Of a DNA stretch of 5,000 nucleotides, positions 206 to 5,000 are shown in pieces. The DNA lies in IMG/VR virus record IMGVR_UViG_2571042870_000016. One strand, 5' to 3'. A model generated the notes under the pieces. That model saw only the letters and a list, made by a program, of their open reading frames with translations, did no database searches and was not told where the DNA came from. Every line of letters starts with the position of its first letter. The first letter of the stretch is position 1. Source of the stretch: a virus. Its lineage: Duplodnaviria > Heunggongvirae > Uroviricota > Caudoviricetes. The translations under genes were made by a program, and so were the position numbers.

Positions 206-1057
206 GTGATTGCTTTACTACTGATTCCCATTCTTGTTAGCGGCTACATTTTAGTAGTCGCTAATTTATATCATTACTATCAATTGCATCGATACGATGG
301 CCAACTTTTGTATATAAAAGTTGCAGCTCATGGAACAATGAGTGTTGTTTTTGTGATTTTAGCAGCAGTAGTAGTGAAATATTTCTTTCCTAATTTTCAC
401 CCAATAGGAATGCTTTCAGATATTCTTAATGTCAAGAAAATAATAAATGGTAATAAAGCTGAAACATGGCTTGCTTTGATTTCATTATCATCAATTATAT
501 TTTCTTTAATTTGGGTGGCTTTAGTTTGGTTAAAAAATATGTTTTTTGGTTTCTTTTGTGAAAAGAAACATCATGAAAACATCTTTCATGCTAAGAAACT
601 TAGAGTATTAAGAAAAACAATTTCTAACTCAACTTTGGATAGTATGCTTTTAGATGCATTAGAAAGCAGTCCTAAAGAACCGATTCTAATAACCTTATCT
701 TCACGGAAAGTTTATGTTGGTATAGTTAATGGAATTCAAGAACCAACAGAAAGCGAAGCGCCAAATAGTTATATATCAATTTTCCCTATTATGTCAGGCT
801 ATAGAGATAAAGATACTCTTTCCATCACCTTTACGAATTCATATCCATCAGAAGTACTAGTGAGTTCAGCTATTACAATGGACTCCCAAAAAAGGCATAA
901 AGTGAAAAATATGGATATAATATTTCGTGCTGATGAAATTTCTCATCTTTCATGGTTCGATTTTGAACTATTTGAACAAGTCAATGATTCGATGAAGCAC
1001 GATACCATTGACTTGCGAAGTGAGACTTACTCAGGGGAAACTAGCGAAAATTTTTAG
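206..1057 (+). CDS. Hypothetical membrane protein (283 aa): three predicted N-terminal TM helices plus a roughly 170-aa soluble C-terminal domain; AT-rich cargo gene
   Basis: Seen in sequence: GTG start at 206 with AAGGAAAAGG upstream, TAG at 1055-1057. Hydrophobic stretches at about residues 2-22, 44-66 and 88-110, followed by a Lys/Arg/His-rich segment (KNMFFGFFCEKKHHENIFHAKKLRVLRK), which fits positive-inside topology. Hand counts of sample lines give roughly 22-37% GC here against about 48% in the prophage genes. No catalytic motif recognised. Alternative start at internal ATG (Met44) would delete the first TM helix. Confidence 0.6.
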   Translation: MIALLLIPILVSGYILVVANLYHYYQLHRYDGQLLYIKVAAHGTMSVVFVILAAVVVKYFFPNFHPIGMLSDILNVKKIINGNKAETWLALISLSSIIFSLIWVALVWLKNMFFGFFCEKKHHENIFHAKKLRVLRKTISNSTLDSMLLDALESSPKEPILITLSSRKVYVGIVNGIQEPTESEAPNSYISIFPIMSGYRDKDTLSITFTNSYPSEVLVSSAITMDSQKRHKVKNMDIIFRADEISHLSWFDFELFEQVNDSMKHDTIDLRSETYSGETSENF

Positions 1058-2243
1058 TAATTTCAGGTTTCGCTAAAATTTCAGCATGAGGTACACACAC
1101 CCAATCGATATGATTTTTAGTATAAATTTTTGTAGATTTGGCGTCGCTGTGTGCCATGCGGCCTTGCGGATCTATTCCCTGCTGATCGAAAAGGTGTGCC
1201 GCCAGCGCACGGATTTCGTGGAAGGTTGGTCTTTCTTCCATGGGTACATTGTCAAATAGTCTCAACCGATCACGAATTGCGGAAAACGATCTACTTAAAT
1301 AATCTGGGGCAACTTGTGTCGGATGTGAAACCTCTTTGCTTCGTTTAACTTGGCGTTCTGGGATCCTGTGAACGACAAACGGACTTGCCACATTATCTCT
1401 GCTATCGTCAATTATCCGTTTCAACTCTTCACCAATCGGTATTGCAACGTGTGATGCCTCTTTTTTTTGTACTTTCTGCCTATGGATATATAGTGTCCCA
1501 TAAATACCGTTTTTTGGCTGTTCTAACCATACGCACCCGCAGATGCCGTCTTTAGGTTCGCGAATTGAGTAACGGATTCGCGATACTTCGAGTCGTGCAT
1601 GTGTAGTTTGCAATGCTAGATCCATTGCTGTTCTTAACCATGGTGCAGCGGCCTGCCTGATAGCTATAAAATGCTCGAGTGACAGGCGCCGTCTTTTCTT
1701 CTCATCAGTCCTACGCATTTTTTTTCTGATGGCCGGGTTATCCAGCATTAGTGATTCATCGACCGCATAAGAGAACAACTTTTTAAGAAAGCTGACCTTT
1801 CTGTTCTGCACATTTGCGGATGCGCTGGCATGATATTTGTTGATGTAGGTATTAACGTGTTCAAGTTCGATATCGCATGCCGGAACATTTACGAAAAACG
1901 CTTTTACGCGTAGAGCGTCATTTTTCCAGTCATCTAAGGTACTCTGGGAAGGACGTTCGTCTTCGATAATCCGGGTCATTATGTGATCAACATGTTCAGC
2001 AAATGGTTTTGCTTCTCCGATAACACCGCCAGATTCTCTAATAAGATTTTCTACTGATGGAGATAATTCTGGTCTCATCCTCAGGTTGTACTCTCTGGCG
2101 ATTGCAATAGCTATTGCCCTATCCTTACCTATATTTTTCTTCTTTCCGGTAATAAGTGTGAATTTATAAACACCTCGATCTTTATCAAAAATCAGATAAT
2201 CAGGAAGATGTCTGTATTCTTTTTTACGTGGCCTTGCCGCCAT
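1041..2243 (-). CDS. int: Site-specific tyrosine recombinase, lambda Int family (prophage integrase)
   Basis: Seen in sequence: the N-terminus (RPRKKEYRHLPDYLIFDKDRGVYKF...GKDRAIAIAIA) parallels the lambda Int arm-binding domain (RRRSHERRDLPPNLYIRNNGYYCYRDP...GRDRRIAITEA). The catalytic region carries the conserved residues: Arg in TTHARLEV, PTFHEIRALAAHLF (H-x-x-R), RMAHSDAKSTKIYTKNH (His and the nucleophile Tyr). The track ORF runs 1041-2249 from a GTG; I place the start at ATG 2243 because GAGGGG sits 7-8 nt upstream of it, 3 nt after the xis stop. TAG stop at 1043-1041. The gene appears intact. Confidence 0.93.
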   Translation of the reverse strand: MAARPRKKEYRHLPDYLIFDKDRGVYKFTLITGKKKNIGKDRAIAIAIAREYNLRMRPELSPSVENLIRESGGVIGEAKPFAEHVDHIMTRIIEDERPSQSTLDDWKNDALRVKAFFVNVPACDIELEHVNTYINKYHASASANVQNRKVSFLKKLFSYAVDESLMLDNPAIRKKMRRTDEKKRRRLSLEHFIAIRQAAAPWLRTAMDLALQTTHARLEVSRIRYSIREPKDGICGCVWLEQPKNGIYGTLYIHRQKVQKKEASHVAIPIGEELKRIIDDSRDNVASPFVVHRIPERQVKRSKEVSHPTQVAPDYLSRSFSAIRDRLRLFDNVPMEERPTFHEIRALAAHLFDQQGIDPQGRMAHSDAKSTKIYTKNHIDWVCVPHAEILAKPEITKNFR

Positions 2244-2245
2244 GG

Positions 2246-2455
2246 TCACCCCTCGTTTATTAACTTGCGAACAGCTTGACTAACCATTGAGTCGACTCCC
2301 CATTTTTCTGTTTCGCAGACAAAAACAGAACCGTCCACGATGCGTCCCATGAGTAGACCGTTCTCGACCCAACGTTTTATCGTTCGGTTGTCAGGAATTG
2401 AGCCATTAGAGAATTCACGGCGTCCCCATTGGCTCGCTTTCATTAGTTTTGCCAT
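2246..2455 (-). CDS. xis: Excisionase / recombination directionality factor, lambda Xis-like (69 aa)
   Basis: Seen in sequence: lies immediately upstream of int, and its TGA (2248-2246) overlaps the int GTG and sits 3 nt before the int ATG. The motif SQWGRREFSNGSIPDNRTIKRWVENGLLMGRIVDGSVFVCETE parallels lambda Xis QEWNARQRRPRSLETVRRWVRECRIFP...KDGREYLFHESA (W..R...S..T..RWV...DG..F.E). The track ORF starts at a TTG at 2500; I prefer ATG 2455 (MAKLMKAS...) because GGAG lies 8 nt upstream. Confidence 0.8.
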   Translation of the reverse strand: MAKLMKASQWGRREFSNGSIPDNRTIKRWVENGLLMGRIVDGSVFVCETEKWGVDSMVSQAVRKLINEG

Positions 2456-2516
2456 GGCTGTTTCTCCACTTAGCCCGCTGCACTCGGGCAGTAATATCAA
2501 ATTCCAGTCCTGATAA

Positions 2517-2675
2517 TTAATTTTGTTCTCTGGTTGCTACCTGTTTTATTGGCCTGATGCTGTCCAGGATAAGACGGCGACGCATGTTTGGCGCACCCCA
2601 ACGGTAACCAGTCTTTTTGTCGTAGGATTCACAACGTCCGGCAACCCAGGACGTTTCAGTGGAATGTAATTTCAT
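2517..2675 (-). CDS. Possible small protein (52 aa, MKLHSTETSWVAGRCESYDKKTGYRWGAPNMRRRLILDSIRPIKQVATREQN); not in the supplied ORF track
   Basis: Seen in sequence: hand translation of the minus strand gives ATG at 2675-2673 and TAA at 2519-2517. It fills an otherwise gene-free 230-bp gap between the 120-aa gene and xis inside a tightly packed operon. The Shine-Dalgarno is weak (GGTG about 10 nt upstream) and no family is recognised. Confidence 0.3.
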   Translation of the reverse strand: MKLHSTETSWVAGRCESYDKKTGYRWGAPNMRRRLILDSIRPIKQVATREQN

Positions 2676-2730
2676 CCGCTTTTCACCGTCTCGGGTGAGA
2701 TAACAATTCCTGTATGAGTTTTTATCACGC

Positions 2731-3093
2731 TCATTTCTTAGTCTCCGGTGCTTTCGGCATTACTGCCCAGTGAGTGATATTGACGTTTTCAAGGTCCCCG
2801 ACCTGAAATGTCCACTGCCATTCTCCGGTTTCTTTTTGCCCCCATGTGTACCAGAGAGAACGCCAGCCAATCAGCCAGCCTTCTCCACTAGCATCAAATA
2901 ACAGAACACTTTCATTTGCTGGTGGCAGTTCAGCTGACACTGGTATTATTTTGTTTTCCAGTGCCGCACATTTAGCTTCAAGCGCGTTGAATTTACGTAC
3001 CAGGTACTCAGCATTTGTTTCGTTCACTTTCAGATCTCGCGGTACACATCTCCCACGAAGAAACCCTTCCATTTCGAAAACATTCATGCGCAT
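2731..3093 (-). CDS. Prophage early protein, YfdS-like (120 aa) with a Trp-rich C-terminal half
   Basis: Seen in sequence: ATG at 3093 with GGAG 8 nt upstream; TGA at 2733-2731. The start overlaps the upstream HD-protein gene by 10 nt, and an in-frame ATG at 3087 forms ATGA with that gene's stop. C-terminal region GWLIGWRSLWYTWGQKETGEWQWTF is Trp-rich. The YfdS assignment rests on synteny (P-Q-R-S order) and matching length to K-12 CPS-53 from memory, not on sequence recognition. Confidence 0.7.
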   Translation of the reverse strand: MRMNVFEMEGFLRGRCVPRDLKVNETNAEYLVRKFNALEAKCAALENKIIPVSAELPPANESVLLFDASGEGWLIGWRSLWYTWGQKETGEWQWTFQVGDLENVNITHWAVMPKAPETKK

Positions 3094-3620
3094 TTGCGTA
3101 ACTCCGATAACTCGTTAAAGCGTTCCATAAACATCCCGTAGGCATGGCCCGGTGCCAGTGGAATCACGTTGAACATCTCTGTTGCCGGGATACCTTCCAG
3201 TACAGGCCAGAAAGAGCCATCATCAAGCCCGAGATCGCGGCGTTCGGTTGCCAGCATGATGAGATCGGCATATTTCACGGGCGTACTCATAACTGGGGGT
3301 AACCCGTATTTCTCACGGATTACGGCGTCTATTTTTTCTTCCATTTGTTTATAGTCAGGAAGAAGGCGTTTCAGTGGTGCGGGAATGTCCTGGCAATACG
3401 CTTCTGTTGCATCATGCATTAACGCTTCAAAAGCAAATTCCTGCGGCACCAGCTGGCTGCAAAGAACCGCATGTTGGGCGACGCTGTAGAAGTGCGAAAG
3501 ATGACCGGCAAAGCGACAGATATTTGAAAGGGAAACCGCGATATCGTTAATATCGATGTCGTCTTTATTTATCCTGTCATAATAAAAATGCTTCCCGGAA
3601 AAAGTTTTAATAAATGACAT
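3084..3620 (-). CDS. yfdR: HD-domain metal-dependent phosphohydrolase, YfdR-like 5'-deoxynucleotidase (178 aa)
   Basis: Seen in sequence: HD-domain metal-binding motifs are present (GHLSHFYSVAQHAV, ALMHDATEAY, and a downstream Asp in TERRDLGL). The track ORF starts at a GTG at 3647 (187 aa); I place the start at ATG 3620 (MSFIKTF...) because GGAG lies 6 nt upstream, which gives 178 aa and matches the K-12 YfdR length as I remember it. TGA at 3086-3084. Confidence 0.85.
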   Translation of the reverse strand: MSFIKTFSGKHFYYDRINKDDIDINDIAVSLSNICRFAGHLSHFYSVAQHAVLCSQLVPQEFAFEALMHDATEAYCQDIPAPLKRLLPDYKQMEEKIDAVIREKYGLPPVMSTPVKYADLIMLATERRDLGLDDGSFWPVLEGIPATEMFNVIPLAPGHAYGMFMERFNELSELRKCA

Positions 3621-3713
3621 TTTGTTCTCCACGTATATGCGCTGCACCGCGCTGAATTCTGGTAAAAAGAATCCCTCACCATCCTGCGATTATTGAGTAA
3701 ATTACGTTTCCAT

Positions 3714-3735
3714 AAATGCCCCCGCAGGGGCATTT
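3714..3735 (-). terminator. Perfect 9-bp GC-rich hairpin (AAATGCCCC / CGCA loop / GGGGCATTT), 12 nt downstream of the yfdQ-like stop; candidate weak intrinsic terminator or RNA-processing structure
   Basis: Seen in sequence: 3714-3722 pairs perfectly with 3727-3735 around a 4-nt loop. On the minus-strand transcript the stem ends in UUU followed by AUGGAAACG, so there is no full U-tract. It sits in the 127-bp yfdQ-yfdR intergenic spacer. Confidence 0.3.
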
Positions 3736-3747
3736 GCAGTAATGAAA

Positions 3748-4572
3748 TCAGGCGGTGAAAGTACCAATAAAGGTTTCTACTTTGCTGTCCTTGAATTTCT
3801 CAACAAGCAGATCACGAAATTCGTTAGCCATTTCTTCCTGCACCGCCTCCAGCTGAATAATGCGCAGAACCAGTACAGGACGATCGCCAGTGATAATACT
3901 GAGGCGTAATTTAAACGGACGTTCTTTCAGACCTTCAAACGGAACGCATTTAAATTCAAATGCCACTGGCATAATGTCTTTGGTCTTCGCTTCGACAGAC
4001 TCCATCAGGGAGCGTTTGCCGCTGAAGTCATTATCTTCAAAATCAGCGGTCTGGTTTGCTTCAATCGTGATTTTACGGACAGCCGCAGCCGCTTTTGTTG
4101 CCTGAATGGCGTCACCATTAGCATCAAAGCCCACAAGGTAGTCGGCCCAGTCTTCAATCCATTCTGCCAGTGACTTCTGGGAGTTACGCTCGCCGTTAAC
4201 AGACAACAGAGCAGAGAACGGTGCTGTCTTTTTCAGTTTGAGAGTGGCGGTGTTATCTGCGTGACCTGGTTCATCAATAGTACCCAGGTTAAGCACACTG
4301 ACGGCACGCATATTATCGGCATCGATAAAGCAGCGGGTGCCTTCATCTGCAAGAACTTTAGAATAACGGGTAAAGTCATCGATGCTGGCAGTGGAAAGCG
4401 CACCACGGAAACGGAAGCGATTTAAATTAAATTTTTCCAGATCATGAATGCGGAAATTCTCAGGCAATGCCACAGCATCGGCACCAATCTTACTGATAAT
4501 TTCATTAACACCCTGAGCAGAAATAAGGGCATGGATTTGATTAATTGCGGTTGCGTCTAAGTTCTGAGACAT
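3748..4572 (-). CDS. yfdQ: YfdQ-like prophage protein (DUF2303 family, 274 aa)
   Basis: Seen in sequence: ATG at 4572 with GAGGA 6 nt upstream; TGA at 3750-3748. The protein ([28 protein letters not shown]...) and its length match my memory of E. coli K-12 CPS-53 YfdQ, and it sits in the expected position between the YfdP-like and YfdR-like genes. Function unknown. Confidence 0.85.
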
Positions 4573-4637
4573 AATAAGTCCTCACTATATAAAGATATTC
4601 AGTGATGAGATAAATAATCAGTTTATTACGAACGATA

Positions 4638-5000
4638 TTAACGACCTGCTGCGCGGAGTTTTCCGTCAGGTTCACCGGCAAGAGTCAGTAATTGTCCCTG
4701 GTCTTCCTGCAGAATAGTCAGGCGACCACCGCGATCGACATACATTGGCGTTTCGGTGGTGTCTTCTTCGGAAATTTTCCCGCGGTTAGTCGGGCGAACA
4801 TATGAGAGTTTGTGTTTGATTTTCACACGGTTCTCATCAAACGGTTCGATTTCCAGATTGAGTGAGACCTTCCCTTTGGTTTTCGTGTTCATCACACCGG
4901 AAGCGACTTCACTGAGAACTGCGCCGATTTTGGTTTCAAATACGCCGCCGTCCAGCTCCCCGATAAATGCCTGCACATCAGTACTGCGTTCGCTAGCCAT
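4638..5000 (-). CDS. YfdP-like prophage protein (120 aa)
   Basis: Seen in sequence: ATG exactly at the window edge (5000-4998), TAA at 4640-4638, 65 bp upstream of the yfdQ-like gene on the same strand. The YfdP assignment rests on synteny and length from memory. The RBS and any upstream extension lie outside the window. Confidence 0.7.
   Translation of the reverse strand: MASERSTDVQAFIGELDGGVFETKIGAVLSEVASGVMNTKTKGKVSLNLEIEPFDENRVKIKHKLSYVRPTNRGKISEEDTTETPMYVDRGGRLTILQEDQGQLLTLAGEPDGKLRAAGR

Follow-up and report, generated by a model that had tools for sequence, protein, structure and literature searches.

Morons, as described by Juhala, Hendrix and colleagues, are said to be autonomous units of promoter, gene and terminator that have an atypical composition. 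Next to the integrase gene (int) of phage lambda, the sib element acts by lying across attP, and integration separates it from int. The latter element is cited in PMC5300877. Accessory and defence genes are also gathered in hotspots such as those of P4 and the gpA-gpQ hotspot of P2 (Rousset et al. 2022, PMC9122126), and a survey lists a minor hotspot between int and att in P2 and PICIs at a position that it calls atypical (PMC13586616). The locus presented here can be compared to all of these and lies in a 5,000-nt stretch of Caudoviricetes DNA (IMG/VR record IMGVR_UViG_2571042870_000016; hereafter the window) in which an AT-rich cargo gene and int converge and overlap by 17 bp (Table 1). We think that this overlap is in all probability (roughly 80%) an incidental module junction and neither a boundary nor a dedicated control element. 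The overlap itself is of little importance, and we see the value of the locus in a map of the att-int cargo slot in proL lambdoid prophages across six enterobacterial genera and in a worked example of how cargo exchange beside int can rewrite the last integrase codons and create a chimeric int.

Table 1. Features around the convergent 3' ends of cargo gene and int (window coordinates).
Feature	Position	Strand	Remarks
Small ORF, 66 aa	1..201	+	First gene of the two-gene cargo cassette
Cargo gene, 283 aa, GC 0.32	206..1057	+	Stop TAG at 1055-1057
G/A homopolymer run GGGGAAA	1034..1040	+	Just outside the int ORF; from the junction alignment of four genera
Convergent overlap of cargo and int 3' ends, 17 bp	1041..1057	both
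int ORF, tyrosine integrase	1041-2249	-	Stop TAG at 1043-1041 (complement of CTA)
Derived int tail LAKPEITKNFR and stop	1041..1076	-	Antisense of the cargo 3' end
int 3' segment, ~75% identical to L004	1077..1296	-
Remainder of int, identical to the VE-V11-M prophage	1297..2249	-	RefSeq start at 2243
69-aa gene directly upstream of int	2246..2455	-	Putative excisionase by position only

The convergent overlap and the two stop codons that delimit it had already been described in a first-pass annotation of this DNA and match the ORF coordinates exactly. RefSeq gives the same ends for cargo gene and int in E. coli APEC O78, so the overlap is real, and a start-codon mis-call is no explanation for it because the overlap is set by the stop codons alone. 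Both overlapping ORFs have many homologues, and positions 1-1300 of the window are 100% identical in 23 complete E. coli genomes, mostly poultry isolates of O78 type, and 99.9% identical in a 24th. The integrase matches phrog_1 (E 1e-30) and the Arm-DNA-binding family PF09003 (26.7 bits, cut-off 22), whereas its score for PF00589 is 17.7 and thereby under the cut-off of 27.1; its sequence contains the motifs HEIRALAAH and STKIY. It agrees in this with lambda-family tyrosine integrases, which have an N-terminal arm-DNA-binding domain and a catalytic domain with the R-H-R-H/Y residues. The 69-aa gene precedes int in every related locus examined, and the gene at the same position of phage phiES15 carries an excisionase annotation. 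YfdP/Q/R-type early-region genes are also found in the window.

In E. coli APEC O78, the prophage lies in the region between yejO and yejM, where the empty site of K-12 carries the tRNA-Pro gene proL. Homology to empty-site genomes, K-12 included, ends inside proL and not at int. A perfect 54-bp direct repeat, GGGATTTTTGGTCGGCACGAGAGGATTTGAACCTCCGACCCCCGACACCCCATG, which includes the 3' half of proL, is found at positions 11705-11758 of locus L001 and a second time on the yejM side, where proL is intact, and these two copies enclose a decayed lambdoid prophage of ~16 kb that contains an IS2 and numerous pseudogenes. The left copy stops 243 bp short of window position 1, which places the cassette inside the prophage, between att and int, with the att core 1.28 kb past the int stop; att core, arm and cassette follow one shared order in five genera. 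No repeat of at least 12 nt of the segment 1020-1090 was detected in 53 kb around the prophage. The left att contains only the 3' 46 nt of the proL sequence, which RefSeq annotates as tRNA-Pro; it gave no ARAGORN call in L001 or L004 and no match to the Rfam tRNA model at E up to 1. ARAGORN called proL in L002 and L003, and only on the yejM side. The window covers the int end of this prophage, which has integrated into the 3' half of proL. That the window itself holds neither a tRNA nor an att repeat had been noted correctly at first pass, and the reason is that both lie just outside it. Of the two readings offered there, an att core or prophage boundary at the int 3' end with the cassette on the outside is refuted by the K-12 empty site and the 54-bp repeat: the proposed alignment to prophage-free genomes loses homology inside proL, and the proposed search for a direct repeat around 1040-1060 came back empty. 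The other reading, a moron inserted between int and att, is supported, as the cassette occupies a variable slot that has the conserved att arm on one side and int on the other.

This slot becomes apparent from comparison to relatives. We found int in 108 E. coli genomes (at least 80% of the query), and among the relatives listed, homology to the window starts only at position 1077, 1078 or 1101. In four same-site relatives that were inspected, the shared DNA is limited to the att arm (L001 11701-11890) and to the window to the right of and including 1077. Between these two parts, one of them carries genes for a TPR-like protein, a 127-aa protein, an int fragment and a DUF2971 protein, another a single 239-aa gene on the opposite strand, and a third type has an AAA ATPase with a 167-aa partner, a transposase remnant and a DUF4760 protein, amounting to four different contents among five E. 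coli loci with common att arm and int. PADLOC assigned the AAA ATPase to AbiLi (E 2e-64), classed the DUF2971 protein with PDC-S31 (E 5e-22) and gave a weak PDC-S64 match in relatives (E 7e-7); the window cassette had no PADLOC match. With its position inside an att-bounded element, conserved flanks, varied content and recognised defence systems in relatives, the slot is an accessory or defence hotspot of known kind that houses AbiL-like and other candidate defence genes, and our literature search found no description of this particular proL att-int slot. In this prophage family, it extends from a ~130-bp conserved att arm to the int stop codon.

The right edge of the slot explains the unusual end of the window integrase. 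Integrases of this family (551 protein clusters) usually have 392 aa and end in ...VPHGEI-KTG-stop. In a comparison of 120 cluster representatives, the residues that follow PH(G/A)E(I/V) form a tail of three residues in 106, mostly K(T/A)G, four residues in ten, and six or seven residues in one each, with two further representatives that have a three-residue tail and a different protein length. No tail among these 120 exceeds seven residues, and none has the 11 codons, LAKPEITKNFR, that are found in the window. DNA homology to the alleles encoding 392 aa stops at 1076/1077, right after the EI codons, and the true junction of backbone and cargo is located there, inside int. The int tail lies opposite the cargo +1 frame codon for codon, so that the cargo stop TAA corresponds to the int leucine TTA. 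In one lineage, the two-gene cassette would have joined int four codons before the usual stop, after ...PH(A/G)EI, and int consequently runs on for 11 codons along the antisense strand of the cargo 3' end until it meets a TAG that is the complement of a cargo leucine codon, CTA. A run-on of 11 codons is unremarkable and at chance level, since we calculate that a stop is expected about once per 12-13 codons at 31% GC.

The same junction, ...ACTAGCGAAA.TTTTT......TTTCA..TT.CGCTAAAATTTC..., is common to E. coli, Kosakonia, Citrobacter and Pectobacterium, and its exact pattern CTAGCGAAANTTTTTN6TTTCANNTTNCGCTAAAATTTC had no match in viral or metagenome contigs. The overlap measures 36 bp in Kosakonia and in Citrobacter, 17 bp in E. 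coli (the window) and 4 bp in Pectobacterium. While the int tail is of equal length in all four genera, the cargo tail occurs in three frames, and the G/A run at 1034-1040 has one additional base in the window compared to Kosakonia and Citrobacter and two compared to Pectobacterium. The different overlap lengths are therefore due to one-base indels in this run that shift the frame of the cargo tail, and, judged from the alignment, the length of 17 bp is a derived frameshift state. The + strand at 1038-1076 reads KLAKIFSNFRFR-TAA in the +1 frame, which is the tail kept by the closest cargo homologues in Citrobacter sedlakii and Kosakonia cowanii that end in ...KLAK(L/F)F(N/Q)(N/S)FKFR. In Enterobacter, the cassette family is found 5 bp from an int of 395 aa, and in Klebsiella a different gene intervenes that overlaps int by 8 bp. 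The last ~19 residues of the cargo protein are predicted to be disordered (pLDDT <50 at 265-267 and 272-283 of the AlphaFold model), so this tail looks dispensable; the one-base indels in the G/A run beside it shift its stop to give overlaps of 36, 17 or 4 bp. We infer that the tails on both sides are neutral. The int tail also shows a shared pattern, ILA[KE]xExxK[NK]FR, along with its constant length in the four genera and may not be fully neutral.

How the cassette reached the E. coli prophage is suggested by the comparison to strain VE-V11-M (L004), whose prophage carries an int of 392 aa. From 1297 to 2569, the two are identical at every base (0 mismatches), followed towards the left by 54 mismatches over 1077-1296 (~75% identity) and no homology left of 1077. 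This pattern of three zones indicates that the cassette entered an E. coli backbone by homologous exchange: the segment 1077-1296 arrived together with the cassette, the crossover at 1296/1297 is recent and forms the most recent exchange boundary, and int as a whole is chimeric since its larger part, 1297-2249, is that of the VE-V11-M prophage. The second crossover would have occurred in or beyond the att arm, which shows 96% identity. Residual int 3' fragments, located within the slot at 2446-2795 in L004 and immediately behind the cassette in L008, fit repeated exchanges that carried along pieces of the int end.

The base composition follows these modules only loosely. GC content is 0.322 for the cargo gene (GC3 0.24), 0.428 for int and 0.466 for 2250-5000, and the small ORF at 0.47 shows that the AT-richness is limited to the 283-aa gene. 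A sharp switch from AT-rich to about 50% GC at the overlap, as it had been proposed earlier, is half right: the shift is real, but it is diffuse, as the likelihood in a two-segment scan stays level between 980 and 1140 and is highest at 1140, and the right side only reaches 43-47%. Low GC extends ~90 bp into int, with a value of 0.32 at 1070-1129. AT-richness of this kind is probably just the mark of a horizontally mobile cargo gene, and a compositional break need not mark the boundary of an element or the latest recombination junction.

The 283-aa cargo protein is predicted to start with three transmembrane helices, which a helical linker connects to an Sm/LSm/Hfq-like beta-barrel at the C-terminus; this is modelled as a five-stranded bent barrel that superposes on Sm/Hfq. 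It belongs to phrog_3630 (function unassigned) and has 229 unnamed homologues that range from Enterobacterales to Pseudomonas, Legionella, Lautropia and Shewanella. The small ORF matches phrog_5739 (E 2e-8), and its family shares the motif (R/V)V(G/V)xRG...(I/V)P/DxEE(I/V)...A..IV. In ~40 loci of many genera, the large gene comes directly after a homologue of the small ORF, and nearly every intact cargo ORF is preceded, usually by 0-24 bp, by a small ORF of ~60-115 aa with a VVGRG-type motif, indicating a conserved two-gene module. Neither protein gave anything above threshold in Pfam, NCBIfam or PADLOC. An FPL match (E 0.003) was below cut-off and disregarded, the cargo profile had no credible match among PDB sequences, and the small ORF had no Pfam or PDB sequence match. 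The motif GRGxxxIPxEEI of the small ORF led us to consider an AbrB/MazE antitoxin; this assignment was rejected given that none of 27 family members matches the SpoVT/AbrB or MazE Pfam models and that the PDB matches are repeat artefacts. Literature searches with the protein accessions and the PHROG number found nothing.

The module is also found between int and attP of Cronobacter phage phiES15 (co-directional with int), in a P2-like Klebsiella phage, where it occupies the gpA-portal hotspot with a bSEFIR gene as neighbour, and in a Serratia island that encodes AlpA. These genomic contexts point to a possible role of the cassette in defence or exclusion. It is considerably more doubtful, and in our opinion improbable, that the two cassette genes form a previously undescribed system of anti-phage defence or exclusion that moves between phage hotspots and, in the proL lineage, is coupled to int expression by mutual antisense transcription owing to the convergence without terminator. 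In such a system, the small protein with the VVGRG motif would team up with the protein of three transmembrane helices and Sm-like barrel, the proL att-int slot, the P2 gpA-portal and an AlpA-encoding (possibly P4-like) island would be its hotspots, and its cargo could be shut off by early transcription of the prophage running through int. In any case, this conserved but unnamed two-gene cassette, which occurs in Enterobacterales and as far afield as Pseudomonas, Legionella and Lautropia, would be a sensible choice for defence screens.

Several other explanations of the overlap have to be weighed against an incidental module junction, and the most viable of them is even compatible with it. We consider it unlikely, though worth keeping in mind, that the abutment of cargo gene and int is functional in that their convergence without terminator causes mutual antisense transcription, either because cargo transcription in the lysogen damps int and the 69-aa gene or because transcription from the early promoter upon induction silences the cargo. 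No intrinsic terminator separates cargo gene and int, in agreement with what the first-pass annotation had stated, and the sole terminator-like site on the + strand at 1438-1468 inside int has a weak stem and a T-run that is not conserved in other genera, so we attribute it to chance within coding sequence. The DNA that precedes the small ORF contains a promoter-like element (TTGC[TC]A, a 17-nt spacer, and TAAGAT or TATCAT) as well as a strong Shine-Dalgarno sequence, both of them conserved across five genera, suggesting that the cassette has its own promoter; another promoter-like sequence on the + strand of the att arm (TTTACT-16-TATAAT, L001 11811-11838) was dismissed, its -10 being present only in the E. 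coli version. Based on the missing terminator and the conserved promoter-like element, convergent transcription through cargo gene and int seems plausible and antisense interference between them possible. Furthermore, convergent spacing of -36 to +5 bp recurs in the five genera with the cassette, and such tight spacing, which leaves no space for a terminator, could, like the 8-bp overlap of int with another gene in Klebsiella, reflect selection for convergent transcription and not mere compaction. However, the overlap length and the cargo frame vary between genera, the overlap is conserved no better than the adjoining coding DNA, and there is neither a conserved RNA structure nor an Rfam family at threshold. 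Most relatives with an int of 392 aa lack the overlap altogether, some of them have cargo on the other strand, and the phiES15 cassette runs in the same direction as int.

Far less likely is a retroregulator of the lambda sib type, in which a hairpin past the int end is cleaved by RNase III and int mRNA from antiterminated read-through of the early promoter is destabilised. An 8-bp inverted repeat, TAGCGAAA-N18-TTTCGCTA, indeed spans 1042-1075, yet its predicted fold is weak (z of -1.8 and -2.3) with a loop of 18 nt, it is absent in L013, its stem is broken in Citrobacter with no compensating change, and all Rfam matches remained under gathering scores. The loose analogy to lambda int retroregulation that had been drawn before also does not hold on positional grounds: the cassette is on the int side of att in the phage as well as in the prophage state, and sib logic cannot apply to an element that stays linked to int in both states and that integration cannot uncouple from it. 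Weakest of all and already refuted by the empty-site comparison is a boundary or att core at or by the int 3' end with an AT-rich cassette of chromosomal or foreign DNA outside the prophage, which has in its favour only the approximate coincidence of GC shift and int stop and against it the att repeat ending left of the window, the end of K-12 homology within proL, the repeat-free segment 1020-1090, and the joint movement of att core, arm and cassette in five genera. We regard the overlap as a by-product of a module junction that looks neutral, with a regulatory role as the less probable option.

Compared to known systems, the predicted barrel of the cargo protein resembles those of Sm/LSm/Hfq proteins, including the WYL sensor domains of defence regulators, but differs from them by the fusion to three transmembrane helices and by showing no match at the sequence level. 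As with lambda sib, the sequence downstream of int could affect int mRNA, and int is oriented towards att as in lambda; unlike sib, a conserved hairpin is missing from the window, integration leaves the element joined to int, and the effect that might be considered here would come from an antisense promoter instead of RNase III processing. The cassette shares with morons its low GC, insertion between backbone genes and an own promoter-like element that is conserved in five genera, but no terminator was found for it, and its 3' end is fused into the neighbouring int. With the hotspots of P2, P4 and PICIs, the locus has in common a variable slot between conserved backbone flanks in an att-bounded element and, in relatives, known or candidate defence genes (AbiLi, PDC-S31 and, weakly, PDC-S64). 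Unlike those, the slot described here belongs to a lambdoid family that integrates at proL, and in this lineage its right edge lies inside the reading frame of int.

The integrase gene int carries a sharp recombination breakpoint at window position 1296/1297, where identity to the related prophage of E. coli strain VE-V11-M falls from 100% (1297-2569) to ~75% (1077-1296), and int is therefore chimeric. The final ~100 residues of the integrase, which include the region of the catalytic Tyr, derive from another allele. Fragments of the int 3' end are also found within the cargo slots (the variable DNA between att arm and int) of related prophages, suggesting that cargo has built up via exchanges that carried along pieces of int.

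At the left att site, only the 3' 46 nt of the tRNA-Pro annotated by RefSeq are proL sequence and the remainder is phage DNA; this annotation is recognized neither by ARAGORN nor by the Rfam tRNA model, and the intact proL lies at the opposite prophage end. Within the annotated tRNA, the phage-derived 5' stretch still opens with CGGCGCG, and this sequence could base-pair with the 3' strand of the acceptor. In the att arm, a strong sigma-70-like match (10/12; TTTACT, 16-nt spacer, TATAAT) is directed toward the cargo slot, but only the E. coli arm carries the -10 element. The adjacent block GTATGTATA..CAAACAGTG is kept in the other four genera and shortened in E. coli; it may serve to bind a recombination protein.

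Features of the prophage, its att ends and related loci
Feature	Locus	Coordinates	Position
RefSeq tRNA-Pro, 78 nt	L001 (left att side)	11713-11790	211-288 bp to the left of window position 1, at the left att site
Sigma-70-like match	L001	11811-11838 (+)	att arm
Frameshifted pseudogene (RefSeq note)	window	2517-2734	between putative excisionase and 120-aa ORF
DinI-like pseudogene, IS2, 629-aa DUF262 protein	L003 (opposite side)	23254-27081	opposite att end, beside intact proL
int 3'-end fragment	L004 (strain VE-V11-M)	2446-2795	cargo slot
int 3'-end fragment	L008 (related prophage locus)	about 5838-5920	cargo slot
Small-ORF and 3-TM protein pair	L018 (Klebsiella phage)	3283-5992	gpA-portal defence hotspot

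The frameshifted gene at 2517-2734 has an intact counterpart of 71 aa in relatives, and further frameshifted and truncated genes as well as an IS2 are found deeper into the prophage, so that the element is decayed. The genes at its opposite att end may form a second cargo region; DUF262 is found in GmrSD-type restriction enzymes.

Across 58 loci from species-representative genomes (L022-L076), the GC content of the cargo gene is usually below that of its surroundings, high-GC hosts included (e.g., 0.37 versus 0.59 and 0.40 versus 0.57), which is consistent with horizontal mobility of the module across Proteobacteria. In the P2-like Klebsiella phage ST15-OXA48phi14.1, the same pair of small ORF and 3-TM protein adjoins a bSEFIR-type TIR protein (PADLOC E 7e-103).
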